Origin: an uncultured Candidatus Binatia bacterium | Lineage (GTDB): Bacteria > Desulfobacterota > Binatia > UBA9968 > CAXXLF01 | DNA: 64,000 nt | Reading direction: 5' to 3' | NCBI GenBank assembly: GCA_965218425.1 | Contig: OZ244621.1 | Span: forward strand, 2,752,001-2,816,000 | In this document: positions 278 to 35,074 of the stretch, piece by piece | Layout of the letters: every line of letters starts with the position of its first letter | Position numbering within the stretch: position 1 is the stretch's first letter | Translations under genes and position numbers: made by a program | The notes under the pieces: model-generated | Database searches by the model: none | The model's input: only the letters and a program-made list of their open reading frames with translations | What the model was told of the DNA's origin: nothing

Positions 278-431
278 GCGACAGCGAGAAAAACAAGGGT
301 AGGCGAAAAGGCTAGCAACTCCGCGTAGGTTCTGGGAAAGCTGGCTATTTATGCTGTTGGTCCACCATCCCAAAACGTTCCTCAAAAACCCCATTGATCC
401 CTTTAAAACCGAAACCGTTTCGGTGGAGGCC

Positions 432-551
432 GGCGTCGGGCCTGCCTTTTTGCTATTTTTGGTTTCCTCCCTTTTCGGATTCCGGCTTCTATCGCACCGA
501 TTCTCTCTTGGAATGTCCTGTCCGTTTGGACGCGGTGTTCTAAAGCATGGA
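432..551 (-). repeat. Repeat module A (RAYT-like 3' end) plus the last few nt of module B
   Basis: Near-identical to copies at 6627, 9030, 23472, 24897, 26073 and 34818; translates LEHRVQTDRTFQERIGAIEAGIRKGRKPKIAKRQA. Confidence 0.85.
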
Positions 552-571
552 CTGGGTGAAACGGGTATATT

Positions 572-1287
572 TTACGTTCGATGAGGGAGAAGCGTAGACC
601 TGATGCACGTCTGCTTAGCTCCAAAGCGGGATGTCTCGATGCTTTTGACGAAGCGCGGAAAGGCGCTGATAGCATCGAAAATGAACCGCGCCTCGGCCTG
701 GTCGATAAGGTCGTTGTCGTGGGCGAAAGACACGTTGTTGCGTATGTCATTGAACTGCTCGAAGACGCTGATGGCGCTCTTGATAATGCGCCGTGTGATC
801 TCGCGAAGTTCGCACTCCTGTTCGATCGCCTTGACATGCTTGCCGACCCGGCTTTGCAGCGGATCATTGCGATCCGAGGCGATGGCCCGCTCCCCAAGGA
901 GGTGAGCGAATTTCTTCATGCAATAGGTGTGCAGGCGATCAAGCGCTGCCGCCGCCTTCTATCCGGGAGATTAGATCAAAGAACCGCGTTGTTAGCGTGT
1001 CGGTTTCAGGGGAAAGGCTCTGGTAACGCGGCAGACTCTCCCCGTGCTGCCACAAGGCGCGTGCTACCTTCGCGACGGTGTATTCGTCCTCGGTCTTGAC
1101 GAAGGCTCGGAGACGCCTCGCCTTCGAGGGGCCGTTGAAGCGGTATTTCTCCTGATAAATTTCAATGCCGAATTCATCCTCGAAAAAATTCCGCCATTGT
1201 GCGGTCAGAGAAATCCGGCACGTAACCGTCATGCATGTCGAAAGCGTCATCGAAAACCCGCCATGCGGAGCGTTTCAGCGAAACCAT
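572..1287 (-). pseudogene. Abortive-infection (AbiJ-N / Abi_C type) protein, frameshifted
   Basis: MVSLKR..DAFDMHDGYVPDFSDRTMAEFF, frameshift, EDEFGIEIY..GPSKARRLRAF, second break, then FNDIRNNVSFAHDN (RN..AH HEPN-like motif). Confidence 0.7.
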
Positions 1288-1342
1288 GCGTCGCTCCCTG
1301 TAGTGCGCGGCGCTGGCCCTTCGGCCGATACGGCTGTGCCTT

Positions 1343-2743: not shown

Positions 2744-2998
2744 CTTGTTTCTCTTTATTCTGCGTAAGCTTTTTCACTCAATTTAAACCATTTACGCGCA
2801 ACTTCCAAGTTTATACGCAAAACTTCCTGCGCATATCCTCTAATCTTGCGTATGGGACGTTAGGCGCAGGTTTGATGCAACCATTTCCATCAAAGCGAAG
2901 CTGCGCAGGCAAAGCCCGGAGTCCATGTTCTGCCCACGGCCGGGTACTATTCAGCCCAACCCTCGGAGAGTTCAAAAGCCTCCCGGGCGGCGGTCGAC

Positions 2999-3217
2999 AA
3001 AGGGGTCAAGCTCCGGCACGATGGCGGTTGTAGTGGCCGTCAAACCTGAAAGGAGAAGACCCCATGCTTTACGTCGGGATAGACCATCACTAACGATACG
3101 CTTAGGTATGCCATCAACGAGAAATGGACAGGACATTCCAAAAGAGAATCGGCACGATGCAAGCTGGAATCCGAAAGGGAAGGAAACCTAAAATAGCAAT
3201 AAGGCAAGCCCGAGCCC
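2999..3217 (+). repeat. Repeat modules B+A (IS110 leader/5' fragment fused to RAYT-like 3' end), internally deleted
   Basis: AGGGGTCAAGCTCC..GAAAGGAGAAGACCCCATGCTTTACGTCGGG.. followed by GGACAGGACATTCC..AAGGCAAGCCCGAGCCC. Confidence 0.85.
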
Positions 3218-3319
3218 GCAATGCTATTCTGATGTCGCAACGGCAATGCGGAGTTCGGGGATGCTCATACATAGCTTGACTCACACACCGAAGACCCGCG
3301 TCAAGATTTTTCTCAAACT

Positions 3320-6460: not shown

Positions 6461-6528
6461 CAGCGTTTTCCGGGCAAGGTGAGAAGGTGGAGTTTCTCAA
6501 CTCCGGCATCGCGCAACAACTCCATCAC
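6460..6528 (-). pseudogene. exbD: C-terminal stub of ExbD/TolR, truncated at the module C end
   Basis: VMELLRDAGVEKLHLLTLPGKR* with TGATG overlap into tonB; 5' part replaced by ..GATTTGACCCCTT. Confidence 0.75.
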
Positions 6529-6529
6529 A

Positions 6530-6905
6530 AAGGGGTCAAATCTTTTGTTGACAAATAACATCTTCCGGATTTTCCCGCCGCCTCCGAAATCTTCCAGCCG
6601 CCCCGCGCTTTAAGTGAATCCCAAAATCGGCGTCATGCTCGCCTTCTTGCTATTCTGGGTTTCCTTTCCTCTCGGATTCCGGCTTGCATCGTGCCGATTC
6701 TCTTTTGGAATGTCCTGTCCGTTTGCACGCGGTGTTCTAAAGCATGTATGCGATCCTATCTCGTCGATTGCATTTTCCCGGGCGTATCGTTTGTGATGGT
6801 CTAACCCGACGTAAAGCATGGGGTCTGCTCCTTTCAGGTTTGACGGCCGTTGCAACCGCCATCCTGCTGGAGCTTGCCCCCTTTTTCATGTTGCCTGATC
6901 CCGAT
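6530..6905. repeat. Composite repeat: module C (+) then modules A and B (-)
   Basis: AAGGGGTCAAATCTTTTGTTGACA..CTTTAAGTGAATCCC, then AAAATCGGCGTCA and the reverse complement of B+A. Confidence 0.9.
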
Positions 6906-7052
6906 TTCTGATCGTCGGGGTGTCTCGACACTCCCCCAGTCTCCGCCGGAACAAAGATCCCAAGACCGCCACACCACGATCACCCGGAAGGCCGATCACG
7001 AAACCCACGCCGCCCATAAAGGCGGGCAAGACGCGGAGATCGACGGTCGTCA

Positions 7053-7451: not shown

Positions 7452-7721
7452 TGTTTCCTCCCTTCGACCTTGACTACGTTTTGCCGCAAGGCGGCCTTTG
7501 ACGGCCACTCGGGCTTGGCGTCAAGGCTCACGTCCTCCTCGGCTTGGCCCTCGTTGGCCGATAGTTGTACAGCCTCACCGTCACGGTGGGGCGGTCATCG
7601 GATTCAGGCATGGGGCCTCCCGAAAGGGCAGGAGTCATGTCGCCGCCACTTCTTTATTAGGTTTATATTATGACACAAATAAAACCATTGATGCATCAAG
7701 AACCGCTGACAATCCGGAAAG

Positions 7722-7848
7722 AAGAGTTACGGTGCTTTAGGCCGGGCGTGCCATGGGATTCACTTAAAGCGTGAGGCGGCTGGAAGATTTCGCAGGCGGC
7801 TGGAAGATCCGGAAGATGTTATTTGTCAACAAAAGATTTGAACCCTTT
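7722..7848 (-). repeat. Repeat module C (RAYT-like 5' end)
   Basis: Reverse complement AAAGGGTTCAAATCTTTTGTTGACA..CTTTAAGTGAATCCC ATG GCA CGC CCG GCC. Confidence 0.9.
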
Positions 7849-8990: not shown

Positions 8991-9029
8991 GACTATCCTT
9001 CCGCCCTCTGCCAAAGGACCGCACGAAAC

Positions 9030-9195
9030 CCGGAGTCATGCCTGCCCTCTTGCTATTCTGGGTTCCCTTCCCTTTCGGATTCCGGCTTGCATTATACCGA
9101 TTCTCTTGTGCAACGTCCTGTCCATCTGGACGCGGCGTTCCAACCAGCGCAACCCACGGCTCATCACTCCGGGATCACGGCTTGAATATCGGTGT
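9030..9195 (-). repeat. Repeat module A, long form
   Basis: RYSSRDPGVMSRGLRWLERRVQMDRTLHKRIGIMQAGIRKGREPRIARGQA* ending GCATGACTCCGG. Confidence 0.85.
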
Positions 9196-10889: not shown

Positions 10890-11042
10890 TATGTATGCGA
10901 TCCTATCTCGTCGGTTGCATTTTCCCGGGCGTATCGTTTGTGATAGTCTAACCCGACGTAAGGCATGGGGTCTTCTCCTTTCAGGTTTGACGGCCGCTGC
11001 AACCGCCAACCTATGGGAGCTTGACCCCGATTCTGACCCCGG
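10890..11042 (-). repeat. Repeat module B with two TGACCCC ends
   Basis: ..GAGCTTGACCCCGATTCTGACCCCGG; encodes the degenerate IS110 start (M)PYVGLDYHKRY. Confidence 0.85.
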
Positions 11043-11058
11043 TTCTTTTTGTGTATGG

Positions 11059-12036: not shown

Positions 12037-12751
12037 ACTGTCTCTCCCGCGTCCATCGCTCGCCCCTCAAGGCGCCGGGCGCGATAGTCGGCCCTGCTTA
12101 GGAACACCTTTCGGCGGGCGGATCCTCGGTTCATCGAATGATGGACTGCACCCCGATATTCAATGCGTAAGGGCCGTGACATTGATAGCCTTAATTACAG
12201 TCCACATTCCAATTATCGACAAGTTCGCCACCCCGCAAGGGCCGTCGTTTGCACAAATTAAATTAGCGCTTAGGCATAAATTTTTCCGTTTTACAAGGTG
12301 TGCCCGAAACGCTTATCAAAGAAAGTGCTCAGACTTTGGCTTGGAAGCGCCTGGTCCCGTACTACGGGCGGCTCCGTGCGGTTCGACGCATCGCCCGCGG
12401 GGGTTCCATGGAGCGCCTCATGAAACGAACTCAAGAAGGAAAAGGAGCAAGTGTTAGCAAAGAGGCGAAGGGAAGATAAACAAAGGCGACTTGCTCAAGT
12501 ACTCGCACTATCGAAGTTGTCTCGTCCGTACAGGTGTATACCGGACCAGCTTCAACGCTTGAGCGGTCCATTGCGGGGTTACCCGATATGGCCACTTGGG
12601 AAGTGAGAGAGGCTCATCATACTTTACAGTTGGGGGTTTTACTTATTTTTCCCCCACGAGGGCGGAGCGGCCATGCAGGTTGCTCAACCTGTCAATGTGT
12701 TCATTCCTCCCTGGGTGGGCACATGCCCCTTCGCCCGTCCTCACCTTGGAG

Positions 12752-13018: not shown

Positions 13019-13062
13019 GTTCGTTTCGCTCGTCTTCACTTCCCTTGACAACAGGGTTGGTA

Positions 13063-13170
13063 AAGGGTTCAAATCTTTTGTTGACAATTAACATCTTCCG
13101 GATCTTCCAGCCGCCTCCGAAATCTTCTATCCGCCTCACGCTTTAAGAATCCCATGGCACGCCCGGCCCA
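13063..13170 (+). repeat. Repeat module C
   Basis: AAGGGTTCAAATCTTTTGTTGACA..CTTTAAGAATCCCATGGCACGCCCGGCCC. Confidence 0.9.
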
Positions 13171-13369
13171 CCCCGTGTTTTCGAATTCTCCGATTCTCCA
13201 TTTTTCGCTTCGCGTTGTTTAACAAACCGTTTCGCCTTGGGCCCCCTCGTTTCGACGTTTCCTAACCCGCTCCGGTAGGTATCCAGCGGAAGCCGGGCCA
13301 CAGGGGTCCGGCCCATCACCAGACAGCGGCAACGGCCGTGAGAACGGAGCCCGTTGTGAGTGCCGACAA

Positions 13370-14488
13370 GTGCTCAACGCCTTACGGCATCCAATAGACA
13401 ATCACATCCAGGACCCGGGCGGCGGCCGCAAGTCGCTCTAGTGCTCAACGCCTTACGGCATCCAATAGACAATCACATCCGGTTGTGGACCAGCCGAAAT
13501 AGCGCAGTGCGTGCTCAACGCCTTACGGCATCCAATAGACAATCACCGCTGGCGCGAGGAGACACTGGCCATAGTCGGTGATGTGCTCAACGCCTTACGG
13601 CATCCAATAGACAATCACACGGCCTTTACCAGTTCCGTCAGGTTGGTTAACTGGGTGCTCAACGCCTTACGGCATCCAATAGACAATCACAAGAAGCAGA
13701 ATGAGCTCCCTGTAATCCAACGGCCTCTGTGCTCAACGCCTTACGGCATCCAATAGACAATCACACGAACACGAGCAGTTCACTTACACCGCGGCCGAAG
13801 CCGTGCTCAACGCCTTACGGCATCCAATAGACAATCACAGCCGAGACGTTTCTATCGTTGGACACTCTGTGGACGTGCTCAACGCCTTACGGCATCCAAT
13901 AGACAATCACGCGGCCGAGCCGCCGCCGTCGTTCGAGACCGTGCCGTGCTCAACGCCTTACGGCATCCAATAGACAATCACTTGTAGCGCTCTTGCTTAT
14001 CCAAAAGGGCCAAGTTGTACTGTGCTCAACGCCTTACGGCATCCAATAGACAATCACAACTCGTTCTTGTCGAACACCGGCTCGTCCTTGTCGTGCTCAA
14101 CGCCTTACGGCATCCAATAGACAATCACGTAATAGAGCACATCGACAACAAAGTGGACAGCCAGTGCTCAACGCCTTACGGCATCCAATAGACAATCACT
14201 CCAACGCATCTTGCAGGATTCGCAAACTAGTTGCGCCCGTGCTCAACGCCTTACGGCATCCAATAGACAATCACCAGGAATGCAACCGAGTAATCGATGC
14301 ACCAAACATAGTGCTCAACGCCTTACGGCATCCAATAGACAATCACTACCGAACCGAAAAAATAAAAAGCCTCTCTTGTCCGTGCTCAACGCCTTACGGC
14401 ATCCAATAGACAATCACCCGACGATCCGCGAGTCGGCGCCGCGCCCCTCCATGTGCTCAACGCCTTACGGCATCCAATAGACAATCAC
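13370..14488 (-). CRISPR. CRISPR array: 16 identical 36-bp repeats, 15 spacers of about 34-40 bp
   Basis: Repeat GTGCTCAACGCCTTACGGCATCCAATAGACAATCAC (+); AT-rich leader on the cas2 side implies minus-strand transcription. Confidence 0.99.
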
Positions 14489-14756
14489 TTCCCGTGGATA
14501 AGTATTTATGTTTGTTGGACTTTTCCATCCTCTATACAAGGACCCCTTTTCCACAATCGAGATTTGTCTCAAAATGTCCCCGCTTTCCTCCCTCTTCCCA
14601 TCCAACTGATGAATATCCCTCCACTTTCTCTTATTTCACGAACCCTTTTCTCCCTTAATTTCACTTTTTCATAGAAACACAAGCAGTTAGTCGTTTTTCT
14701 TGAATCTTGGCTCCAAACACTCCTGGGTGCATGAATTCCGGATCTTCCCGAAAAAA
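14489..14756 (-). promoter_or_regulatory. CRISPR leader
   Basis: AT-rich noncoding stretch between the cas2 stop and the first repeat. Confidence 0.75.
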
Positions 14757-15050
14757 TCACACCACACGAAAGCGCGGCTCATCCTCAACCCATTCGGTGT
14801 TGGGATTACGTACAATCAGCTTTGACCTGCACGAGGAACAAAGTCCCGCAATCATCAGGCTGTCTTCAGGCGCCATCTCCTTCTCCAGCTCCCAACGCAT
14901 CCGCTCAAGCTGTCGCCTGGTCAGACGACAACGAAAGATCGAATATTGCAGGCTTTCCCCGTAGCCCTTAAGCAGCTTGAAGCAACGACGCCAACGTTTG
15001 GGGTCACGAATGTCGTAACAAACCAGATACCAGATCCGTCCTTCCGCCAT
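14757..15050 (-). CDS. cas2: CRISPR-associated Cas2
   Basis: YLVCYDIRDPKRW..GYGESLQYSIFRC. Confidence 0.97.
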   Translation of the reverse strand: MAEGRIWYLVCYDIRDPKRWRRCFKLLKGYGESLQYSIFRCRLTRRQLERMRWELEKEMAPEDSLMIAGLCSSCRSKLIVRNPNTEWVEDEPRFRVV

Positions 15051-15060
15051 GCACGACCTC

Positions 15061-16716
15061 TCAACGCAGACGCATACGAGCGAACAACCCAGGTTCTCCG
15101 GCCCATTCCTTCTCCAGCAAACGAGCCTCCAGTTCGATCAATCGCGCATACGATAACGAATATCCTGTCACAGGATGTTTCCACCGGTCTTCTTTTCGGC
15201 GTTCATAGATCTCAATGGCTTTTTTTCGACCGGAATCACTGAGCCAGATTTGCTTGCCCGCGTGTGTAAAGTCCTCTTCCACATCCCACTGAAGGCGATT
15301 GACCGAAGCAACCAACGGCATGTCCCATAGCGGGACTCGAAACAACTCCATCAGATCCAAAGCTAACGGGTGAGCGGCCGAACGCGGACGGTGAAAGAAG
15401 CCAAAAGCGGGTTCAAGTCCGACGGCTATTATCGCCTGCAAGACATCCCGGTACAGAAGTGCGTAGCCAAAGCTCAACAGCGCATTGATCCGATCCCGAG
15501 GCGGACGACGGTTTCTTCCGTTGAAACGCAATCGTTCATCCAAGTCGTCTCGCAGCAGTCCAGGGAAACCTGAGAAATAGTGACGCCCGGCATCCCCCTC
15601 GTGGCCCCGCAAGGAATCGATCCCTTCCGCATAACCGGCGGCACGAAGCGCGTTCCGAAGCCCTTGCACGGCGCCATCAATGCCCAACGACTTTCGATCC
15701 TTGCCCCGCGACGCCCGCAGCAAAAACCCAAGCTGGCCGGACGCTCGGGCAATCGCCAACCGTCGGCCCAAGCGAAATGTCAAGCCGGGGTCTCGCAATG
15801 CCTCGAACTGACGGATGCGCCGCTGCACCGGACTTGCGCTAGAGACAAGTCCGCTTACGTAGCGTCCTCCGCCCGTAAACCAATGCACCCCGACTTCCTG
15901 GGAGGCACACAGATGGATCGCTTGGGTGCTGATCTGCGCGTAACCGTGGATAACAATCTCTCCGACCTCACGAACGGGAAATGCCTGCTTCTGCCCGGCT
16001 GTGTCCGTGACCGTCAGGGTTTCTCCGGACTTGCCAATCCATGCTCCATGCGTCGTGACGTGAACGGTCTGACGTTCACGGTCTTGTGGAAAGAGTCGGA
16101 CAGGTTCCCAGTCCTCATCTTTAGCCAGGCGTTCTTCCTCAGGCAGACAGACCGGGGCGAGGGAGCAGCGCAGACATAGCCGATCATTTTCAGCGACCGG
16201 CGGGCGTTCAACGGTCCGGCTGAGCTCACGGGCACGAGCGACAGCCTTTAGAACATCTCCACGTGCTGTTTCGTCCACGGGGACACGGACAGTCGTATTA
16301 TTGGCGTGGTAGCGAATCCGCGCTTCTTCGATATGAGTCCCGGTGTGCTCCTCCAAAAGCAGAGTATACGCGCATACCTGGAGACGGTCGCTCGGCCACG
16401 CCTGCGGCCCAACGTCGCCTTTAGCCGAACGACCGCGCTTGTGTTCGTAGGGAATGAGCTGACCATCCCGGCGGCGCAGGCAATCAACCTTCCCGCGAAT
16501 GCCGAGCGTCTCGCTCTCCAGGACCAGGCTGACAATTTCGCCTTCGTCAGCCGCCAGCTCTTCATGGAGACGGCGCCCTGCGTACACCGCTGCATCCGCG
16601 ACGCGAATCTCTTCGACCTCTTCCAGGTAGAAAAGACGCTCGCAGTACGCCAAGGCGTGGAGAGCCATGACGCGGATGGTGGGGGTATCCATGGTAACAA
16701 GTTCGTTCAGAAACAC
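15061..16716 (-). CDS. cas1: Cas4/Cas1 fusion (Myxococcus subtype)
   Basis: N-terminal YCER..GKVD..EHKRG..CLRCSLAPVC Cas4; C-terminal RPPRDRINALLSFGY..GFFH..LDLMELFR Cas1. Confidence 0.97.
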   Translation of the reverse strand: MFLNELVTMDTPTIRVMALHALAYCERLFYLEEVEEIRVADAAVYAGRRLHEELAADEGEIVSLVLESETLGIRGKVDCLRRRDGQLIPYEHKRGRSAKGDVGPQAWPSDRLQVCAYTLLLEEHTGTHIEEARIRYHANNTTVRVPVDETARGDVLKAVARARELSRTVERPPVAENDRLCLRCSLAPVCLPEEERLAKDEDWEPVRLFPQDRERQTVHVTTHGAWIGKSGETLTVTDTAGQKQAFPVREVGEIVIHGYAQISTQAIHLCASQEVGVHWFTGGGRYVSGLVSSASPVQRRIRQFEALRDPGLTFRLGRRLAIARASGQLGFLLRASRGKDRKSLGIDGAVQGLRNALRAAGYAEGIDSLRGHEGDAGRHYFSGFPGLLRDDLDERLRFNGRNRRPPRDRINALLSFGYALLYRDVLQAIIAVGLEPAFGFFHRPRSAAHPLALDLMELFRVPLWDMPLVASVNRLQWDVEEDFTHAGKQIWLSDSGRKKAIEIYERRKEDRWKHPVTGYSLSYARLIELEARLLEKEWAGEPGLFARMRLR

Positions 16717-18356: not shown

Positions 18357-18383
18357 GCTTTTCCTCCTCTGAAATTTCGTTAT

Positions 18384-20048: not shown

Positions 20049-20052
20049 TATT

Positions 20053-22371
20053 TCAGTCCTTCACCCCTACAAGCCGGTCAAGAAAACCATAGGCAGGATG
20101 GTAATGAGTAGCGGGAGCCACTTTCAAAAATCGTCCCAGAGATGAGCATGATTTAGCAAACCGCCTTGGGACCGGCACAACGAATCCATCCGTTGGCTGC
20201 CTATGCTTTACTGCCAAAAGCCAGTCCTGCATATCGATGTCGAGGATGGCGGGCACCGTGAATTCCTCTCCCTCTCGATATGCGTAACTCATCGCATAAC
20301 AACCACTTTCCAAAAAACTGCTGAACCGTTCGGGTTCACGCTGGACGGGCTGATGTTCGGCCATAGTCGCTTCCAAGTATGCTTGAGAGAAGACTTTTCC
20401 ATCAAGTACGTGTATGAAGGATTGAGCGTCGCTGATTTCTTCGGGCTTATAGGGAAGGCCATCTGTCGCTGGATAAACATAGACTTCTCCACATTTCCCA
20501 TCTCCAGGCTTTCCTCTTCTGTTACAACGCCCCATCCTCTGAATGAGAGCAGTAATCGGCGCGTATTCTGAAAGTAAAACATCAGCGTCGAGATCCAGGC
20601 TCATCTCACAAACTTGGGTCGTGACTGCGAGGAAAGGGCCTGTCTCTCCCTGAAATGCGTTGATGACCGACTTATGTTGTGTCCTCCGATCAGTAAGTCT
20701 GAAGCGACTGTGGTAGCACTGGACTATCCCGTCACCGAACTGTTGCCCCATTGAGAGCGCAATATCCTGACATTTCCTAACCTGGTTAGTAACCCACAGC
20801 ACTTTCTTCTTTTCTTGAAGAGCTTGCCGGGCTTTTCTCTCTGCGTCCTCGCGTGAAGTAATATGGAGGCGGTAGCGGGGGTGTTCGGCTCTTTCTTTCA
20901 AGTCGTCGAGATTGTTAAGCGTTTCAGGAAAAAGCTGCAGGCCGCACTCGTCAACTAAGGTGCGCCGCCTCCCCTCTGACAGTGTGGCAGTCATGCACAG
21001 CACAGGGACATCAAACTGTTTGAGAAATGTCGTAAAAGCAGAAAACATCGCTTTGTCAAAACTATGGATCTCATCTACAACGATGACGCTATCGACAAGC
21101 AGAGGCAGTAGGCACAATGGGCCATATTGGTTTTGCATGAAGGCTAAAAACTGGTCTGCTGTCGCACTGAAAAGACGTTTTTGCCAGAATCCTAGTGCGT
21201 AGAGACGTTGTTCCGTAGTGAAATTCTTCTCCGTTCGGGTATCAGCAGGATTTTCAAACATTTCCTCCAGGTCATAGGCTGCTGTACCATGAGCCAGCGC
21301 TGCATCTTCTTCCGGAGCCCAGGCTACATAGTCCCGAAAGCCTTCCGTTGCGGTCGCACGTGTTGGATAAAGAAAGAGCACACGGGTCGCCGGCTTTTTC
21401 TGTAGGCGCGTCGCAATCCAGTTCCAGGCTGCCAGGGTTTTTCCGCTTCCACATGGAGCGAGCAAGAGGGCTCGCTCGCTAAGGGTGCTCGCCTGCTTCT
21501 GGAAATCTTGGAGCTTAAAATTGCTTTCGGTTTTTCTCTCGATCTCCCGAACGCGGGGAAAAATAACTTTGTCACGGATGTCCTGAGCTGAAAGAGGATC
21601 TCCAAATGAAGCTTTTAACCAGCTTTCAAGATCATGACCTTCCCGGACTACGCCTGACCCTGCCGAGTCCGCGGCGAGGAGGGCTGCCTTTACGCTGCAC
21701 AGAAATGAAAGCTGCTGTGGATCTTTACTTATTGCTCTCCCAAAACGATGTGCTTGGTGTTTTGCGGAATTAAGGAGGTCCGTGAGATTGAATAAAGAAG
21801 AGGAGTCTGTCTGGAAACTCCAGAAAAGAGGAATATTGGGTCGAAAGGGGACTGGCAGGCTAAGTGTCTCACCAATAACGTCAAGCAGCTCTGTAAAACC
21901 GCTTTTATCTCCGAGAACGCGGAATGAATCGCTCATCCCTAGCGGTTGACCCCAGCGGTCTGGATCAATCTTTAGGTGGTGAGAGATAACGCTGGATAGC
22001 ACGACATCGAAGTCGAGCAGAGGATTGCAACTAAGCCACCATTTGAAATCCGGCAAACTTAATAAAAGACCGCTCAAATGTTCGTGACGAATGCTTTGGT
22101 CGCCGTTTCGTCTGACAACTTTTTGGAATCCATCATTTGCTTTGCCAAGATCATGGCAGGCTGCGGCTGCTAACGTATTCATGAGAAAACGTTCATAGTC
22201 CTCATTTTTCAGGCGGAAAAAGCGTAGCCATTCCCGAGCGAGACGTGTAGGGGCATTGGCATTGCCGTAAAGCAACTCTACGGATGCCATAATATCCTTT
22301 GTGTGGCACAGCAACGTTTTTGGTTGCCTACCTGGAATTGGACTTTTTGCTAAGATTATTCCTTCCATCAA
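20053..22371 (-). CDS. cas3: Cas3 HD nuclease-helicase
   Basis: HDLGKAN, APCGSGKT, DEIH, MTAT, QRMGRCNR. Confidence 0.97.
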   Translation of the reverse strand: MMEGIILAKSPIPGRQPKTLLCHTKDIMASVELLYGNANAPTRLAREWLRFFRLKNEDYERFLMNTLAAAACHDLGKANDGFQKVVRRNGDQSIRHEHLSGLLLSLPDFKWWLSCNPLLDFDVVLSSVISHHLKIDPDRWGQPLGMSDSFRVLGDKSGFTELLDVIGETLSLPVPFRPNIPLFWSFQTDSSSLFNLTDLLNSAKHQAHRFGRAISKDPQQLSFLCSVKAALLAADSAGSGVVREGHDLESWLKASFGDPLSAQDIRDKVIFPRVREIERKTESNFKLQDFQKQASTLSERALLLAPCGSGKTLAAWNWIATRLQKKPATRVLFLYPTRATATEGFRDYVAWAPEEDAALAHGTAAYDLEEMFENPADTRTEKNFTTEQRLYALGFWQKRLFSATADQFLAFMQNQYGPLCLLPLLVDSVIVVDEIHSFDKAMFSAFTTFLKQFDVPVLCMTATLSEGRRRTLVDECGLQLFPETLNNLDDLKERAEHPRYRLHITSREDAERKARQALQEKKKVLWVTNQVRKCQDIALSMGQQFGDGIVQCYHSRFRLTDRRTQHKSVINAFQGETGPFLAVTTQVCEMSLDLDADVLLSEYAPITALIQRMGRCNRRGKPGDGKCGEVYVYPATDGLPYKPEEISDAQSFIHVLDGKVFSQAYLEATMAEHQPVQREPERFSSFLESGCYAMSYAYREGEEFTVPAILDIDMQDWLLAVKHRQPTDGFVVPVPRRFAKSCSSLGRFLKVAPATHYHPAYGFLDRLVGVKD

Positions 22372-22953
22372 CTAGCCTCTCCACGGCACGAACACACCAC
22401 AACCCATCCGCCTACGACCACCTAAGCCGTTCTCTTGGAGGGTCAGGGATTCCTCTGCTGTGAGTTGGGTGACGAATAATTCAAATCCAACCACCTGCTT
22501 GTCCTTGACCCGGAAGGTGCGCCGCTGGCCCAAGGTGGCCTCGCACGTAACGTCGAGACTTTGCAACTTGCGCTGTACGGCTTCGAGAAAGTCCGCCTCT
22601 TCAAGAAATCCCTTGATCGTAACCAATCGAGCGCGGAGACGGGCGGCTGGCAGGAGCATACGGACTTCCGGTACACCCACGCTGAGAGGGTGTTCGTCCA
22701 CGTCCAATCTTTTCCCGGCCAGCTTTAGATAAGAACGAATCCGGTCATCTGGAAGGCGCAGTATCAAACGAGAAAAATCCATTAATTGGAGTTTCCCGTT
22801 TCCGTTATACATGCCGCGAATAGGCTGAACGCCAAGGGCTTTTGCCTCGTGTATCTCCGGAACAACCCGGCTCAGCGCCGCGTATAAAGCATAGCCATGG
22901 TCAACGGGAACGGTCGATCCGTTCAGGCGAAAAGCTAGATCAATATGCGGCAT
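22372..22953 (-). CDS. cas6: Cas6 (Cmx6 type)
   Basis: MPHIDLAFRLNGSTVPVDHGYALY..GLGGRRRMGCGVF; the longer ORF runs into module C. Confidence 0.93.
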   Translation of the reverse strand: MPHIDLAFRLNGSTVPVDHGYALYAALSRVVPEIHEAKALGVQPIRGMYNGNGKLQLMDFSRLILRLPDDRIRSYLKLAGKRLDVDEHPLSVGVPEVRMLLPAARLRARLVTIKGFLEEADFLEAVQRKLQSLDVTCEATLGQRRTFRVKDKQVVGFELFVTQLTAEESLTLQENGLGGRRRMGCGVFVPWRG

Positions 22954-23039
22954 TGCGATGGAACTGTTGTCAAATTGTGGGTAAAAAGATCCCGGCGGCG
23001 ACTCTGGTTCTTTCGATTTGAACCCCGTCTCAGTATACA

Positions 23040-23190
23040 AAGAGGTCAAATCTTTTATTGACAAATAAAATCTTCCGGATTTTCCATCCGCCTCACGCTT
23101 TAAGTGAATCCCAAAATCGGCGTCAGGCTTGCCTTCTTGCTATTTGGGTTTCCATCCCTTTCGGATTCCGGCCTGTATTGCACCGATTCA
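23040..23190. repeat. Module C (+) joined to truncated module A (-), same junction as at 6530
   Basis: AAGAGGTCAAATCTTTTATTGACA..TAAGTGAATCCCAAAATCGGCGTCAGGCTTGCCTTCTTGC. Confidence 0.9.
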
Positions 23191-23471
23191 CGTCACCCCG
23201 GCCGAAAAGGCAATTGTTCCAGTCAGCGCCCATACGGTCGGGGTGGCGTCTTTCGCGTGCGGCTTCGACGACGTATCGAATGACACTGAACTCCGACCAT
23301 CGGTCCGGAACTTCAAGCGTGCCCACACCAAAGTCGGATCACTGTCTTAATGATAAGCCTGTCTCGCGCGAGTTGTGAAATGGAAAGATTTGGGGCTCAG
23401 GGCTAATTCAATTTGGGCAAATGCGGGGGTCGTTGCCGCCGTCGTTGCGGGGGCTCGACGGCGATGCGGGG

Positions 23472-23750
23472 CCGGAGTCATTCTTGCCTTCTTGCTATCC
23501 TGGGTTTCCTTCCCTTTCGGATTCCAGCTTGTACTGTGCCAACTCTCCTCCGCAATGTCCTGTCCATCTGGACGTGGTGTTCTAAGGCATGGATCCGATC
23601 CTTTCTCGTCGATTGCATTTACCTGAGCGTGTCGCTTGTGATAGTCTAACCCGACGTAAAGCATGGGGTCTTCTCCTTTCAGGTTTGACGGCCGCTACAA
23701 CCGCCATCCTGCTGGAGCTTGGCCCCATTTTCATGTAACCTGACGCCGGT
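23472..23750 (-). repeat. Repeat modules B+A
   Basis: Encodes MLYVGLDYHKRHAQVNAIDEKG; ends CGGCGTCAGG and TGACTCCGG. Confidence 0.9.
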
Positions 23751-24848: not shown

Positions 24849-24896
24849 GCATCTAACTGGGTGCTCCACCGGACGGCAATTCCACTATGCTGGGGC

Positions 24897-25070
24897 CGGG
24901 GTCATGCTTGCCTTCTTGCTATTCTGGGTTTCCTTCCCTTTCGGATTCCAGCTTGTATCGTGCCAGTTCTCTCTTGGAATGTCCTGTCCGTCTGGACGCG
25001 GTGTTCTAATCAGCGCAACCCACGGCTCATCGCTCCGGCATCACGGCTTGAATATCGGGTAGCCTCCATG
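24897..25070 (-). repeat. Repeat module A, long form, ending GCATGACCCCGG
   Basis: MEATRYSSRDAGAMSRGLR*LEHRVQTDRTFQERTGTIQAGIRKGRKPRIARRQA*. Confidence 0.88.
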
Positions 25071-25133
25071 AGTCGGCATCCGGCTTCTTCAACCCCTATC
25101 TTCGCCATAATCCGGCGTATCCGACTTATCTCT

Positions 25134-25247
25134 CTACACGTAGGCGTAGAGTTCGTAGCCGAATCGGGTTGGCAGCCCTTGAAGGATCGCAAGGTAGCGT
25201 TGGCGGTCATCGTCATCGCGGAAGATGAGGCGGCCTTGGTTGGCGCG
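25134..25247 (-). pseudogene. RAYT / Y1 HUH transposase internal fragment
   Basis: RANQGRLIFRDDDDRQRYLAILQGLPTRFGYELYAYV*, matching the RGN..IF.DD.DR..YL..LYAYVLM segment before the HUH motif. Confidence 0.75.
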
Positions 25248-25567
25248 GCGTGTCTATTTCATCGAGCACTTCAAATAGCAATAAGACATGCTTGACACCA
25301 TCCTCTTGCTGATTTCCGCAGGACCGAGACATTCACTCCCATGCTTGGCTTCGAGCAGTACATCCAGCACGGCTTCCTCTAGGCAAAATTCACCGATCCT
25401 GGCGAACTGTTTGGGTCTGATTCCACTCATGATCGAGCCTCCTTGTTTCTGTTTTCTACCAGTCGGATGGCTTGAAAGGATCTTTCTGATTCGATAGGGA
25501 TAGGATGGGTGTTTCTTACTGTGACCAGTATCCTGGATAATTCCCCAAAATTTGAAGGAGACCGAGT

Positions 25568-26072: not shown

Positions 26073-26450
26073 GCCTTTCCTTTCGGATTCCGGCTTGTAT
26101 CGTGCCGATTCTCTCTTGGAATGTCCTGTCCATTTGGACGCGGTGTTCTAAGCATGGATGCGATCCTTTCTCGTCGATGGCACTTACCTGGGCGTATCGC
26201 TTGCGATGGTCTAACCCGACGTAAAGCATGGGGTCTTCTCCTTTCAGGTTTGATGGCCGCTACAACCACCATCCTGCTGGAGCTTGACCCCTTTTTCATG
26301 TTACCTGACCCCCATGTTGGGTAATTTGGAGTGAAGAGTTACGGTGCGGCGGGCCGGGCGTGCCATGGGATTCACTTAAAGCGTGAGGCGGATAGAAGAT
26401 TTCGGAGGCGGCTGGAAAATCCGGAAGATGTTATTTGTCAACAAATGATT
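26073..26450 (-). mobile_element. Most complete composite C-B-A unit (putative non-autonomous RAYT-derived element), interrupted at its C end by IS3
   Basis: Minus strand: C end, ATGGCACGCCCGGCCCGC (MARPAR), GGGGTCAGG, GGGGTCAAG hairpin, IS110 start, module A. Confidence 0.75.
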
Positions 26451-27693
26451 TGAGGTAGCCCAGGTTTGACGGACACCTAAAAAGGGGACAAGATCCCCGC
26501 AGGAGGTGTTCGATGGGCAAGCGAAGGCGTTTCACCCAAGAGTTTAAGTTGGAAGCTGTTCGACTGCTGGAGGCGGGCGCTCGGCCAGCAGCGGAGATTG
26601 CACGGGAACTGGGAGTACCTCGCAATCGACTGTACAAGTGGCAGGAGCAAGTGACGAGGAAAGGGGCGGCTGCGTTTCCCGGCACAGGTCGAGGTAGAGA
26701 CAACGATGAGGTAGCACGGTTAAGGCGAGAGCTGGAGCGGGTAACGGAACAACGAGATATATTAAAAAAGGCCGCAGCGTACTTTGCCAAGGAGCTCAAG
26801 TAAAGTACGCGTTTATACGAGCTCACAGGACAGAGTTTAGGGTAGTGAGGATGTGCGAGGTATTAGAGGTCAGTCGTAGTGGGTACTACGACTGGAGCGG
26901 TGGAGGGGAGTCTCGGCGTAGAGCACAGGATAAGGTTGTGATCAAAGAGATCCGCAAGGTGCACGAGAGCTACAAGGAAGCGTACGGGGCAGTCAAGACA
27001 TGGCTGACGCTGAAGGAGGCGGGGGTGACATGTGGGAAGCATGGGGTGGCGAGGCTGAGGAGTTTAGTGGGGATAGAGACGCGTCGGGTGCAAAGGTTTC
27101 GATTGGCCTACAAGGCTCGTCACAGTGCGCCACCGGCACCGAACTTGTTGCGTCAACGCTTCGAAGCGTCAGGCCCCGACCAGGTATGGATGGCCGATAT
27201 TACCTTCATTGGTACCCGATCTGGGTGGTTATACCTGGCGGTAGTGGTGGACCTTTACTCTCGGCTGGTGGTGGGATGGTCAATGAAGCAACGTCCCACA
27301 CAGGAGTTGGTCAGTGAAGCTTTACTGATGGCTATCGAACAGCGCCAGCCTATGGCGGGGCTGATTCACCATAGCGACCAAGGAATCCAATACGCTAGCA
27401 ATCACTACGTTGAGTTGCTCAAACGCCATGGGGTGGTGCGCAGCATGAGCCGCAAAGGGAATTGCTACGACAATGCAGTGGTCGAGAGTTTGTTCAGCTC
27501 ACTAAAGAATGAACTTGTACACCATCAGGATTATAAGACGAGGCAGGACGCTAGGTCGGATATCTTCGACTACATTGAACTGTTCTACAACCGAAGAAGA
27601 AAGCATGAGTCGTTGGGATACCACACCCCAATGGCATATGACTCGATCAAACGTGTGGCTTAATTAACTGTCCGTGAAACCCGGGTCGCTTCA
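26451..27693 (+). mobile_element. Intact IS3-family element, 1243 bp
   Basis: IRL TGAGGTAGCCCAGGTTTGACGGACA; IRR (rc) TGAAGCGACCCGGGTTTCACGGACA; ATT 3-bp target duplication. Confidence 0.95.
26513..27663 (+). CDS. IS3 transposase OrfA (26513-26803) / OrfB joined by -1 frameshift
   Basis: AAAAAAG slippery site at 26764-26770; WMADITF, HHSDQG, DNAVVESLF DDE motifs. Confidence 0.95.
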
Positions 27694-32583: not shown

Positions 32584-32810
32584 ATGCCTCGGCAAGCGCG
32601 CCTCGATGCTCCTGGTATTCTGCACCACGTGGTGGTGCGAGGGTTCGAGCGCCGCCCCATCTTTCGGGACAACGTTGACCGGCGCGACTTCTGCGCCCGG
32701 TTGGGGGGACTGGTGGAAGGGACTACCCTAACCGTGTACGCGTGGGCTCTGCTCCCGAACCACGCGCACCTCCTGCTCCAGACGGGCCAGCGGCCCCTGG
32801 CTCTGTGTAA
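32584..32810 (+). pseudogene. RAYT / Y1 HUH transposase N-terminal part, truncated
   Basis: MPRQARLDAPGILHHVVVRGFERRPIFRD..YAWALLPNHAHLLL; homology stops at TAGGGGACAT. Confidence 0.9.
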
Positions 32811-32829
32811 TAGGGGACATCCTATAGTC

Positions 32830-33141
32830 TCCTTGTCAAGTAATAATTTCTTGGCATTAGTTTTTCAATAGAATCAGCACATTGCAAATCCTGCCGGATT
32901 GATCACACACTTCTACACTAAGCCTGCACACAGGCTTTGATATTTTCTGGCGAGTCTCTCACTACCTTCGAACTTAGCACCTCATCGTTACAAGTATTCG
33001 GTGTACCTGCTTTTAGTCACCCATCATCCCTTATCCAGGTTGCAAAGTTCAGTGAGAGGCCCCTGTATTGTCCCTCCCGAGGTCCTTGTTTGGCCTCTAC
33101 GTTGCGTCTCGGGGTCCTCCCTCGCCAAGGTCAAATAGACT
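32830..33141 (-). ncRNA. Long noncoding end downstream of the IS110 ORF, candidate bridge/seek RNA locus
   Basis: About 300 bp noncoding stretch directly 3' of the transposase; inferred from position only. Confidence 0.4.
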
Positions 33142-34428
33142 CTAGTCTATCTTCAAATACGTCGGATCAAAAAACTCCTTTTTCTTCATCAACGTCCAGG
33201 CAATGATTAACATCTTAGCTGTCAACTTCACCCTCATCTTGGTCTTAATCCCTTTCTCCTTTTGCCGCCCTGTGAGTTTGTGGGTAAAATAGGCAGTAAA
33301 GTGCTTATCCTTGTTTGAGGCCACCAACGCTGCCTGGTACAACCCATAGCGCACCTCGACCTTACCCTTCTTGGAAATACGCGGCGTGCTATCGGATGAA
33401 TACTTTCCACTACGAGAAGCCGAAAGATCCAGACCCACCATCTTCAGCACTTGGCTGCCACTACTAAAACGAAAAGGGTCTGCTATAGCGGCCAGCACCA
33501 TGGCACAAACCAATGGGCCAAAACCAGGTATACTCAAAAGGTAAGGATAGGATTCAAACTGAAGGCAAATCTGCTTAATCTGCTCATCGGTTTCGCCAAT
33601 CGTTTGGCGTACCTGCTTTAACAGACTGACCACCCTATCGGCTTCAAATTGAACCGACGGACCGAACCGAGAGCCAATCGAAACCGCTGCCTTTTGCCAT
33701 ACGGCGGACAACCGACGTTGTTGGGCATAGGTTTGACCTCGGGTGTGAATCCTGCTTAGAAACTGTTCATAGTCTAAGCCCGATACCTCCACTGGGTCCA
33801 AACACCATTGGACAATCGCTAATCCCTCCTTTGCTGCCCAATGACAACACTGGTCTAACTCCGGGAAATACTGGGCCACCAGGTGATTGCGAATGCGTAT
33901 CCTTAGCCCATGTTCGAGCTTCTTTAGCTTTCTTCTCATTGACAGAAGATTCCTTAACTCCCGAAGCTCCACACCGGGAAATTCGTAATACACGCACTTT
34001 CCCTGAGAAATCAGATCCGCAATGTTATCTGCGTCCTTGGTGTCGTGTTTGTCCCATCTACCATCCAACAATGAGCGGTTCTTCTTCACGGCATCTGAAG
34101 CTACCAGGACCACCATATGCTGTTTCCTGATTAAGAACTCTCCCAGAGGTTTGTGATAGTTCGCTGTCGGTTCCAGCCCAAAAACTTCCTTCGTTAATCC
34201 GTGCCTAACTCTAACGGCCTCTACCTGCAATAAAAGCTTTTCAAATCCCTCTCTGTGGTTATCGAAGACCAGTTGCTTATACAGCACCTTGCCTGTAGCC
34301 GTGCCCATAAAGGCATAGTGCCTGTCCTTGGCCACATCGATTCCCACGATCAGATACTCTGTTGAGCCACGAATCTCCTTTTTCAATTGACGAAATGCTT
34401 CGAGCCTGTTAGCTTCAAACCGTTCCAT
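33142..34428 (-). CDS. IS110-family transposase, full length
   Basis: VGIDVAKD, GLEPTANY, KHDTKDA (DEDD); SIPGFG..GLDLSASRSG. Confidence 0.95.
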   Translation of the reverse strand: MERFEANRLEAFRQLKKEIRGSTEYLIVGIDVAKDRHYAFMGTATGKVLYKQLVFDNHREGFEKLLLQVEAVRVRHGLTKEVFGLEPTANYHKPLGEFLIRKQHMVVLVASDAVKKNRSLLDGRWDKHDTKDADNIADLISQGKCVYYEFPGVELRELRNLLSMRRKLKKLEHGLRIRIRNHLVAQYFPELDQCCHWAAKEGLAIVQWCLDPVEVSGLDYEQFLSRIHTRGQTYAQQRRLSAVWQKAAVSIGSRFGPSVQFEADRVVSLLKQVRQTIGETDEQIKQICLQFESYPYLLSIPGFGPLVCAMVLAAIADPFRFSSGSQVLKMVGLDLSASRSGKYSSDSTPRISKKGKVEVRYGLYQAALVASNKDKHFTAYFTHKLTGRQKEKGIKTKMRVKLTAKMLIIAWTLMKKKEFFDPTYLKID

Positions 34429-34671
34429 ATTTAAACCTCCTGTGTATTAAGAATTTTATGGGTCGTACCTAAGTTCTTAGCAGGAGGTTTTTTTTATACA
34501 GCTATAAAATAACTTCCAATTATAATACCGTGCGGATCTATAACCCTGGTAAGCTATAATATATAATGTTGCGGCTTTAATGGCTTTTTACTTTATTTCG
34601 ATTCCAGGAGCCTAAACCAGTGCTCACTGTTAAGATCGCCTTGTAGCGCAGCGGGTGGAGCGTATTCGAAA

Positions 34672-34927
34672 CCGGGGTCAGGTTATATGAAAAAGGGGTC
34701 AAGCTCCAGCAGGATGGCGGTTGTAGCAGCCATCAAACCTGAAAGGAGAAGATCCCATCCTTTACGTCGGGTTAGACTGCCACAAACGATACACCCAGGT
34801 AGATGCCATTGACCGGAAAGCACCGCGTCCAAACGGACAGGACATTCCAAGAGAGAATTGGCACGATACAAGCTGGAATCCGAAAGGGAAGGAAACCCAG
34901 AATAGCAAAAAGGCAAGGCTGAGCCCG
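34672..34927 (+). repeat. Repeat modules B+A
   Basis: CCGGGGTCAGGTTATATGAAAAAGGGGTCAAGCTCC..AGGCAAGGCTGAGCCCG. Confidence 0.9.
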
Positions 34928-35074
34928 ATTCAAATAGTCAGGAGGATCGTCAGCTAGCGACTGAAAATCAGTCTGCCCTTGCTGTTTTAGCCATTTCTTA
35001 GCCAAACGTTCGTCATTGCTCTTTCCATTATTCACCAGGTAAAAATACATCCCATATTCAGTTCCCATCGAACA

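Follow-up and report, generated by a model that had tools for sequence, protein, structure and literature searches.

The three repeat modules that recur in the flagged interval (430..34930) are ends and miniature versions of a selfish element, of a kind that is known but has been little studied, crowded into a defence gene island. By their sequence features they can be assigned to TIRtrons, which encode the transposase TIRYT (TnpA_Y1 subclass 2.1.2). The analysis covered a 64,000-nt stretch of DNA (the window) and the genome in which it lies (G000). The sequence-only reading that flagged the interval had proposed an array of gene cassettes joined there by a RAYT acting in trans; nothing yet shows that the modules form an integron-like gene-capture system. 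The interval probably represents most of a defence island full of TIRtron ends, fragments and miniature derivatives, a mosaic left by transposase action and exchange between strains. G000 holds an unusually rich TIRYT record, in which element ends are measurably linked to recent duplication borders within defence islands.

Placement of the modules

BLASTN searches of the window with module queries re-found all 20 copies listed before (A 9 of 9, B 6 of 6, C 5 of 5). Module A matched at 430-543(-), 3126-3218(+), 6628-6740(-), 9030-9192(-), 23118-23178(-), 23472-23585(-), 24896-25060(-), 26074-26154(-) and 34821-34927(+). Module B matched at 2996-3124(+), 6745-6905(-), 10892-11028(-), 23590-23747(-), 26155-26326(-) and 34674-34831(+), and module C at 6536-6623(+), 7751-7841(-), 13069-13157(+), 23046-23113(+) and 26363-26453(-). 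Strands were mixed: 7 copies of A are on the minus strand and 2 on the plus strand, and for C the numbers are 2 and 3. BLASTN found no copy of A, B or C at 35-64 kb of the window, and the claim that the modules occur only in this interval held to that extent; it failed genome-wide, where 53 A, 46 B and 19 C matches lay in 16 clusters. Eight islands of G000 contained 111 of the 127 counted. Modules were also present in two related genomes.

The modules are clustered and not spread evenly over the genome: 83 sites occupied 20 of the 50-kb bins versus 54 expected (minimum 44 in 2000 shuffles). The active IS3 element, taken as a contrast, had 1 of its 15 copies inside module clusters. Orientation of A, B and C showed no bias relative to replication (A 23 versus 30), the replication axis being defined by the GC-skew minimum at 1.81 Mb and maximum at 3.81 Mb. 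Module copies were 80-93% alike, and the subterminal ~100 bp of A show conservation across about 50 copies.

Transposase families and their ends

Module A consists of the last 35-77 codons and the right inverted repeat of a family 1 Y1 transposase gene with a DnaA_C-like HTH. The intact gene, for which a search had been suggested, was found in G000 outside the window; it encodes 325 aa and has matching inverted repeats, and the protein scored 63 bits for Pfam Y1_Tnp and 25.9 bits for Bac_DnaA_C, the latter below the cut-off of 31.5 and at the expected place. Its last codons and right repeat match module A, which supports the proposed origin of A as the 3' end of a RAYT-like Y1 gene with an HTH at the C-terminus. 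The family 1 miniature copies have GGGGTCAGG as their terminus; the termini of the intact copy read GGGGTCCGG/GGTGTCAGG.

The intact family 2 element (genome 1404076-1405066) has GGGGTCAGACCTTGACA at both ends and carries there GGGGTCAG, which fits GGGG[AT][CG]A[CG]. Its protein scored 52 bits for Y1_Tnp and 20.9 bits for Bac_DnaA_C, again below the cut-off of 31.5 and at the expected place. The family 2 end module is young, its 21 copies having a median identity of 98.3% to the query over 62 nt. As had been predicted, the modules are bordered by ends of the GGGGTCA type.

An intact family 3 gene was found in another Binatia genome (L036; Y1_Tnp 51 bits, Bac_DnaA_C 36 bits against the cut-off of 31.5), and its 3' end is the antisense of module C. 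Module C is the family 3 3' end with the right inverted repeat, read on the opposite strand, and not the 5' end of module A's gene as had been thought. The ATG-GCA-CGC-CCG-GCC (MARPA) stretch after C, taken before for a RAYT start, is the antisense of conserved family 3 C-terminal codons. A role for C as promoter plus RAYT start was ruled out on two grounds: no Y1 gene lies downstream of C here, and C overlaps the 3' end of the L036 gene in antisense. The family 3 terminus, GGGGTCAA, departs from GGGG[AT][CG]A[CG] in its last base; an exact-match scan of genome contigs for the C terminus gave only 2 loci. In G000, family 1 and family 2 each have an intact gene and family 3 is present as many fragments; of the sets of derived ends, one is young and two are old.

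Module B is a 15-nt family 1 left terminus joined to a captured 5' portion of an IS110 element, of which the leader and only the first 21-60 codons survive; the earlier description of B as an IS110 leader was correct and is extended by the first ~22-25 codons of that IS110 gene. The longest piece scored 24 bits for NCBIfam transpos_IS110 against a cut-off of 140, so that no intact DEDD transposase gene is present. No full-length B-type IS110 was found in G000 or 40 related genomes with a 60-aa query, and the window's own IS110 (2 copies in the genome) is unrelated to B. Nearly all 46 B matches start sharply at a terminus of the GGGGTCAGG type; the DNA upstream of it is unrelated, and AACC or GGCC often stands just before it. 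Together B and A make up a 200-285 bp non-autonomous miniature element. IS110-type site-specific nesting was considered as the origin of the B-A junction and discarded, since B carries a family 1 terminus of its own and the two ends of the B-A element form an inverted repeat. Within 450 bp, 25 of 50 right and 25 of 46 left family 1 termini were paired; since half of the family 1 ends pair as self-contained miniature elements, capture is not needed to explain those. The B-A elements are old, as judged by an identity among 21 copies with a median of 84.7% and a maximum of 91.5%.

The Y1 HUH core is present in families 1-3, with HVH/HFH/HYH and YIHLNP/YVHLNP motifs read in the translations, and NCBIfam REP_Tyr_transpos, which has a cut-off of 80 bits, gave lower scores of 72 and 66. 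Seven end sequences folded as ssDNA had no REP-type hairpins (z-scores -1.05 to +1.41), only terminal stems of 4-5 bp. REPINs and RAYTs, reportedly studied by Bertels and Rainey, are similar in that a single-copy Y1 gene is accompanied by many short non-autonomous derivatives of its ends, with an inverted end pair as the unit. Unlike REPINs, the ends here have no GTAG-tagged REP hairpin, as the folds indicate, and their copies cluster in islands rather than lying genome-wide across intergenic regions.

TIRtrons encoding TIRYTs were described by Di Nocera, De Gregorio and Rocco (2013, PMC3733652), and according to the available parts of that paper and of PMC6006769, TIRYTs equal TnpA_Y1 subclass 2.1.2 of the latter and are flanked by GGGG[AT][CG]A[CG] inverted repeats. 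They are among the largest groups of Y1 transposase-like genes, with subclass 2.1 in 14.9% of strains (PMC6006769, available text), and those parts of the two papers do not demonstrate a function for them. The families in G000 agree with TIRtrons as presented there (PMC3733652) in having a gene for a Y1 HUH protein of ~310-330 aa whose C-terminus resembles Bac_DnaA_C, flanking inverted repeats in full or near agreement with GGGG[AT][CG]A[CG], no REP hairpins, and end-sequence families scattered over the genome singly or in groups. They differ from the elements in the available text of both papers in that three families occur side by side, ends exceed genes tens to one, and most copies are miniature or one-ended derivatives (one with an IS110 5' piece as filler), the copies being restricted to defence islands and located at the borders of duplications. 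This copy pattern of three families, derivatives, islands and duplication borders is not mentioned in the available parts of PMC3733652 and PMC6006769.

Features and cargo of the island

The defence island is ~42 kb long, from about -0.7 to 41.2 kb in window coordinates, and the flagged interval makes up most of it. Its features are listed with window coordinates and, where assigned, strand.

430..543 (-): solo family 1 right end with its terminus at 430 (A, model positions 52-165)
2996..3218 (+): family 1 B-A miniature element whose left terminus is degenerate
6461..6528 (-): last 22 codons of exbD, cut exactly at the start of module C (sequence reading)
6529..6623 (-): family 3 right-end fragment (module C antisense) with its GGGGTCAA terminus at 6529
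6625..6908 (-): complete family 1 B-A miniature element with the AAATCGG inverted-repeat variant at both ends
7716..7848 (+): family 3 right-end fragment with its terminus at 7848, matching aa 290-330 of the intact relative
9027..9192 (-): family 1 right end, long form (model positions 3-165)
10892..11045 (-): solo module B whose family 1 left terminus lies at 11033-11045
12081..12188 (-): family 3 transposase gene, N-terminal fragment only (aa 10-45)
13062..13157 (-): family 3 right-end fragment (module C) adjoining the CRISPR array
13369..23064 (-): type I-B CRISPR-Cas locus (array 13369-14505, cas2, cas4-cas1, cas5, cas7, cas8b, cas3, cas6)
23039..23178: short fragment of a family 3 right end (23039-23113), adjoined by a family 1 right end that is truncated (23118-23178, -)
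23468..23750 (-): complete family 1 B-A miniature element
24892..25299 (-): miniature family 1 TIRtron (left repeat, N-terminal codons for aa 19-55, codons 249-325, right repeat)
26074..26453: B-A element (26074-26330, -), left terminus against a family 3 right-end fragment (26325-26453, +)
26450-27706: IS3-family element, about 15 copies, 12 of them at 99.2-99.7%
27708-28944: second IS-like repeat, 5 copies near 90%
32584-32871: N-terminal fragment (95 aa) of a fourth Y1 paralogue, cut by the intact IS110
32810-34613: intact IS110 element, 2 genome copies
34660..34930 (+): complete B-A miniature element, family 1
35075..41197: remainder of the island beyond the flagged interval, with a type IIG restriction-modification gene, type IV Mrr and bactofilin
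41186-41197: terminus-like motif on the border of a 97.2% duplicate

Both Y1 fragments recognised before are genuine, one being family 1 aa 19-55 (25137-25247) and the other the 95-aa piece of the fourth paralogue. Relatives of the miniature TIRtron lie at genome 1683.9, 1937.0 and 2598.7 kb, and the composite of a B-A element with a family 3 end occurs 5 times in the genome. The placement of C beside a CRISPR array is repeated at a paralogous CRISPR-Cas locus (genome 223-233 kb).

The cargo named earlier was largely confirmed (Fic, TonB, MAPEG, Sel1, PLP decarboxylase, DUF4268, type I-B CRISPR-Cas and, as a fragment, Cache), with the exception of Abi, which was not found. Defence content of the island comprises SoFic-like, PDC-S11, type I-B CRISPR-Cas, and type IIG and type IV restriction genes. 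Some genes are cut at element ends: exbD stops at 6528, where a more distant paralogue near genome 1.705 Mb runs past the truncation point, and a partial Cache domain ends beside the element at 26074. MAPEG sits between inward-facing family 3 ends at 6529 and 7848. The decarboxylase gene is bracketed by the right end 9027-9192 and the solo module B (10892-11045) in transposon-like orientation. With its ribosome-binding site and module A it recurs as a unit at 97.5% identity, and the A terminus is the exact border of this duplicate; the second copy lies ~2 kb from the intact family 1 gene and has no left terminus. A DNA search of five relatives (G001-G005) for the MAPEG and decarboxylase segments gave short repeat pieces only.

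Origin of the mosaic

Recent (95-99%) low-copy duplication borders coincided with element termini at 10 of 36 points, compared with a background of 1.9%; outside the islands, 0 of 18 junctions of duplicate pairs did so. The borders sit at termini or a few bases away, not inside modules, and most duplicated segments abut a terminus on its outer side rather than lying between two ends. The right end 430..543, for example, adjoins the border of a 98.6% duplicate (genome 472095-473478). A 3.9-kb piece of a zinc-uptake operon was copied to another island at 99% identity and stops exactly at a family 2 terminus; a continuation past that terminus was found nowhere else. No unit of terminus, cargo and terminus was found twice with both ends. 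Simple insertion of elements leaves the enrichment of borders at termini unexplained. Because no empty site was found for any copy, insertion itself is only inferred. In G001, a genome of the same genus, the genes flanking the island on the left and on the right lie on different contigs with no modules nearby (right-flank homology begins at 42213). Farther outward, these contigs match distant regions of G000, which leaves no readable empty site.

A TIRtron is a selfish element with a single gene for a Y1 HUH TIRYT with a DnaA_C-like HTH, between inverted-repeat ends that begin with GGGGTCA. Under the reading that we favour, TIRtrons would have landed beside and inside each other, and their transposase may then have acted at the termini by cutting, adjacent deletion and one-ended joining. 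This action and later exchange of island pieces between strains would have produced the present mosaic, with an element end next to nearly every gene or operon. The position of the duplication borders suggests that a transposase made them, and the cargo genes would be bystanders rather than captured cassettes. We know of no experiment in which transposition of any TIRYT was shown. The end of the zinc-operon piece at a family 2 terminus and the recurrence of the decarboxylase gene with A as a unit sit awkwardly with this reading. If the ends do not mediate joining, the island is a well-documented case of selfish repeats mimicking a cassette array.

Gene capture or cargo mobilisation by the TIRYTs is a rather unlikely alternative. 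Any two facing GGGGTCA termini, or one terminus and a surrogate site, would be used in trans by the intact family 1 or family 2 transposases, and genes beside or between ends would be copied into islands that grow as end-delimited arrays. The terminal position of duplication borders within the islands alone, the zinc-operon piece, the bracketed and recurring decarboxylase gene, MAPEG between its inward-facing ends and the youth of the family 2 end module all fit such a process. They have to be set against the absence of a unit repeated with both ends, the second decarboxylase copy without a left terminus, the failure to find MAPEG and the decarboxylase in the five relatives, and the duplicated segments that mostly lie outside a terminus; orientations are mixed and unbiased with respect to replication, the cargo includes gene fragments, and the family 1 miniature elements are old. 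The cassette array with a RAYT acting in trans fares likewise: miniature elements, mixed orientations and gene fragments speak against it, and the borders at termini fit its end-mediated joining. Because of these borders, end-mediated joining was kept as a minor possibility.

It is rather unlikely that TIRYTs cut GGGGTCA termini and join non-cognate DNA, with lone or paired ends copying chromosomal and foreign segments into defence islands. If true, Y1 transposases would build variable gene arrays by a route unlike that of integrons and unlike ISCR/Helitron capture, and end-mediated joining would explain the assembly and shuffling of some defence islands. The interval resembles an integron in its array of unrelated genes and operons with a short recurring module between them; unlike in integrons, the modules are transposon ends in mixed orientation, and the cargo has its own signals and includes gene fragments. 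A Pfam scan of 38 window ORFs, in which not every small ORF is included, detected no tyrosine integrase (Phage_integrase), its recombinase-type matches being rve (IS3), IS110 and Y1 only. Neither attI nor attC-like hairpins were found, and the modules have no significant fold. IS91/ISCR elements and Helitrons mobilise genes from one end by means of rolling-circle Rep-like HUH enzymes (Y2 in IS91). The modules share with them an HUH enzyme and a constant element end beside variable DNA, but the enzymes here are Y1, for which capture is undocumented in the available parts of PMC3733652 and PMC6006769. In picocyanobacteria, TnpA_REP adjoins prochlorosin gene arrays and has been proposed to drive their diversification (bioRxiv 10.1101/2020.03.09.984088, available text); there, too, a Y1 TnpA_REP-type gene is tied to a variable gene array, and subclass and cargo differ.

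The ends may also be passive, the islands being a horizontally exchanged DNA pool in which the modules are old repeats carried along. Ordinary homologous or illegitimate recombination, with later selection against disruptions at other places, would then account for both mosaic and clustering; this we regard as improbable. In its favour, G002, which belongs to another genus (flank proteins 55-73% identical), has segments from three separate G000 islands next to each other at 97-98%, and G001 holds island pieces at 95-97%, among them the A part of 2996..3218 with the next 700 bp (96.8%). The modules are older than the exchanges of segments, as their 80-93% likeness to each other indicates, and the G001 flanks on separate contigs without modules nearby also suit passive carriage. 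Crossovers within repeats, however, predict borders inside modules, whereas the borders sit at or near termini, and the active IS3 shows no preference for islands.

Seven public metagenome runs were found and four were compared with window 1-20000. Short Logan contigs break at modules, and at the contig joints 3216 to 4267, 6886 to 7724 and 10775 to 3027 the letters match paralogous genome copies. An assembly artefact with collapsed or mis-joined repeats, which such breaks could suggest, is very improbable, given that G000 is a single 4.46-Mb contig, that the same junction types occur in many copies and in two other genomes, and that near-identical contigs from the runs of three studies cover unique segments.

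Origin of the repeat modules

The sequence-only reading had taken modules C and A for the 5' and 3' ends of a RAYT gene carrying an HTH, and the interval 430-34930 for an integron-like capture array delimited by such ends. All 20 module copies that it had placed in the window (9/9 A, 6/6 B and 5/5 C) were recovered within a few bases of its coordinates by a repeat scan and BLASTN with module queries. No A, B or C copy was found in window 35-64 kb.

Every A copy was extended upstream in frame, and one yielded a long open frame (genome 2583267-2584241). The encoded protein (325 aa) begins MARKPRVHFPGALYH, has the motifs HVH and YIHLNP, and closes with the A peptide; Pfam matched Y1_Tnp (63 bits) and, under the cut-off, Bac_DnaA_C (26 bits). 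The gene lies between inverted repeats of ~30 nt with the outer part GGGGC(C)GG.GTC.GGC. Because the frame ends in the A peptide and inverted repeats bound the gene, module A is the final 35-77 codons of this family 1 gene plus its right inverted repeat, and the reading of A as the end of a RAYT-like gene with an HTH held up. TBLASTN placed the 5' truncation points of A copies between aa 249 and 296, with a constant 3' end, and found 4-5 "mini" copies in which both inverted repeats enclose ~55 N-terminal codons and codons 249-325.

Module B carries an IS110-type transposase leader followed by the first ~22-25 codons, in a few copies as many as 52-60; a search of the host genome and 40 relatives with this query gave no intact gene of the type. 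The start of almost all 46 B matches is a GGGGTCAGG-type terminus. AACC or GGCC often stands before it, and the upstream DNA of one copy is unrelated to that of another. Since the 15-nt terminal string of B matches the outer end of A (CCTGAC.CCGGTTTC) as its inverted complement, B plus A constitutes a 200-285-bp non-autonomous family 1 TIRtron with terminal inverted repeats and an IS110 piece as filler. Pairing within 450 bp was seen for 25/50 right and 25/46 left family 1 termini, and the window holds six complete B-A elements. These elements are old (median pairwise identity 84.7%, maximum 91.5%, 21 copies compared). The outermost bases of both ends co-vary within single elements (AAATCGG/CCGATTT, GGAAC/GTTCC, GGGCCG/CGGCCC), as if each copy had split a palindromic target or had copied one end from the other.

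Module C was in no case found upstream of a Y1 gene in the host genome, and the frame after it (MARPAHRTATLHS...) does not resemble the Y1 N-terminus. When public genomes were scanned for exact matches to the first 25 nt of C, two loci came up. In another Binatia genome (L036:1564-2520), a 319-aa gene (Y1_Tnp 51 bits, Bac_DnaA_C 36 bits) reads into C from the other side. The reverse complement of C gives the gene's last codons (...GVKSYGTVGWACHGIHQKRE...VICQQKI-stop, the stop lying within TTTGACC), so C is the right end of a third TIRtron family; the WACHG codons, read on the antisense strand, give "ATG GCA CGC CCG GCC". The assignment of C as a RAYT gene 5' end was therefore rejected: A and C do come from the ends of RAYT-like HTH genes, but each is a 3' end, their families are separate, and C had been read on the wrong strand.

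Families 2 and 3 have related termini. That of family 3 is GGGGTCAAATCTTTTGTTGACA; family 2 has an intact 991-bp element (genome 1404076-1405066) with GGGGTCAGACCTTGACA on both ends. Family 3 is present in the host genome as fragments and mini versions only. The family 2 end module, a derivative of ~62-190 nt, has 21 near-identical copies with a median identity of 98.3% to the query over 62 nt; it is young, and family 2 looks recently active, unlike family 1.

TIRtron pieces and elements in the host genome. Co-varying ends are those described for single B-A elements.
Window 24892-25299: "mini" family 1 copy (TBLASTN)
Window 6625-6908: B-A element with co-varying ends
Genome 1932525-1932722: B-A element with co-varying ends
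Genome 194519-194717: B-A element with co-varying ends
Window 7716-7838: family 3 piece
Window 26325-26450: family 3 piece
Window 12081-12188: family 3 N-terminal piece

The element class is already known. Di Nocera et al. 2013 (PMC3733652) named inverted-repeat-flanked Y1 genes TIRtrons and their proteins TIRYTs, and reported that these share a GGGGWSAS motif and that some genomes have families of end copies, either single, paired or in groups. Quentin et al. 2018 (PMC6006769) assigned 20/26 of those proteins to TnpA_Y1 subclass 2.1, in which subgroup 2.1.2 has a Bac_DnaA_C-like C-terminus and lacks REP hairpins. Inverted repeats, a GGGGWSAS-type motif, the Bac_DnaA_C-like C-terminus and the lack of REP hairpins all recur here; seven end sequences, when folded, showed no significant structure.

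Genomic clustering and island content

The host genome (G000), a single 4.46-Mb contig on which the window occupies C1:2752001-2816000, contains 53 matches to A, 46 to B and 19 to C, plus 9 to the left part of the miniature element, in 16 clusters. The statement that the modules recur only in the flagged interval thus holds for the window and fails for the genome. Eight islands (6.3% of the genome) contain 111/127 matches. Even genome-wide scatter, named beforehand as evidence against an array, was not seen: the 83 merged sites fill 20 50-kb bins, versus a random expectation of 54 on average and 44 at minimum (2000 trials). The islands are not merely sites where any insertion is tolerated, because an active IS3 (~15 copies, 12 at 99.2-99.7% and 3 more diverged at 85-94%) has only one copy inside module clusters. 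The modules are also present, again clustered, in two other genomes, G001 of the same genus and G002 of a different genus in the family. Any module match was found in 7/41 genomes, more distant relatives having a ~25-nt piece of C only.

The island spans about -0.7 kb to 41.2 kb in window coordinates. Pfam and PADLOC confirmed most of the cargo first proposed, namely Fic (SoFic-like), TonB, MAPEG, Sel1, PLP decarboxylase, DUF4268, a Cache fragment and a complete type I-B CRISPR-Cas locus; "Abi" was not found. Past the flagged interval lie genes for a type IIG restriction-modification enzyme, a type IV Mrr enzyme and a bactofilin. The DUF4268 gene (window 11059-12036), which directly adjoins a family 1 left terminus, is a full-length match (E 1e-124) to the PADLOC candidate defence family PDC-S11. 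A second type I-B locus (G000:C1:223090-233882) is an 87-89% paralogue of window 13058-23585; the two have the same family 3 end fragments on either side and arrays with a common repeat sequence.

Duplication borders and the capture hypothesis

The genome has 22 pairs of low-copy, non-tandem duplications with a minimum length of 500 bp and a minimum identity of 94%, 13 touching an island and 9 outside. Ten of 36 island border points lie within 25 nt of a catalogued terminus, versus 1.9% of island bases (binomial p about 1e-9, although the pairs are not wholly independent, two HSPs coming from one tonB duplication and one pair being an IS110 element). A terminus was present in at least one copy at 8/26 junctions of island pairs versus 0/18 in the outside pairs. 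This excess of borders at termini is the sole result that merits follow-up.

The best explanation is probably a defence island that has become crowded by ends and miniature copies of three TIRtron families and would have undergone end-associated rearrangements. Borders at termini are consistent with transposase action at the ends, which could mean either capture or, once an element had inserted, adjacent deletion and rearrangement.

Genuine capture mediated by the ends is unlikely, although several duplications favour a role for the ends. The decarboxylase gene, its ribosome-binding site and module A recur at 97.5%; one border falls just beyond the A terminus, and the intact family 1 gene lies ~2 kb from the second copy. 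Another island received a 99% copy of 3.9 kb from a zinc-uptake operon. This copy breaks off within a Lon-domain gene, the break coinciding exactly with a family 2 terminus; at the source locus the continuation is single copy. The 98% tonB duplicate ends 18 nt inside a family 3 terminus, and 17 of the 21 copies of the young family 2 end module are in islands. Against capture, modules occur on both strands, half of the family 1 ends belong to self-contained miniature elements, and no terminus-cargo-terminus unit was seen twice with both ends. The tonB "cassette" has only the last 22 codons of exbD, cut exactly at the start of C, while a more distant paralogue near 1.705 Mb continues past the cut. 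Of the Cache protein only part of the domain is present, stopping next to the element at 26074, and an IS110 element interrupts a fourth Y1 gene. A Pfam search of 38 window ORFs revealed no integrase, nor was a tRNA found. Overall, the original observation proved sound and well described, and its interpretation holds in part.

Somewhat less likely again is a passive role for the repeats through plain homologous recombination, as borders at termini rather than within repeats argue against it. An assembly artefact is very unlikely.

A 1.4-kb segment with an S9-type hydrolase gene has two 98.6% copies with the same end base, at window 430 and G000:C1:473479; at that base each copy meets its own family 1 right end, the two right ends being different and oppositely oriented.

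Exchange between lineages

Homology to the right flank in G001 starts at window 42213. The two flanks of the island are on different contigs in that genome, so no empty site could be read; it does contain a 96.8% match to the A copy at 3126 and the 700 bp next to it. In G002, flank proteins are only 55-73% identical to their counterparts, yet pieces of three host islands (near 1545, 1580 and 2576-2584 kb) lie side by side at 97-98% (G002:C1:1238000-1257999). The pieces extend into the intact family 1 transposase gene, with module copies at two of the junctions. This mosaic points to recent intergeneric transfer, and pieces of islands do move between lineages.

Other repeats were also observed. 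The tonB gene (window 5240-6160) has four 207-nt tandem units, a copy number unlike that of its 98% paralogue at 693-695 kb, and the Sel1 gene (window 8174-8575) has 108-nt tandem units. A 1.2-kb repeat (window 27708-28944) has five copies near 90% in the host genome and matches at 93.8% in G001 and G002; its 395-aa protein had no Pfam match, and it is probably an uncatalogued insertion sequence. A ~18-kb stretch across the contig ends (G000:C1:1-5096 and 4446398-4459497) is repeated in inverted orientation at 3289962-3306887 with 99.95% identity.
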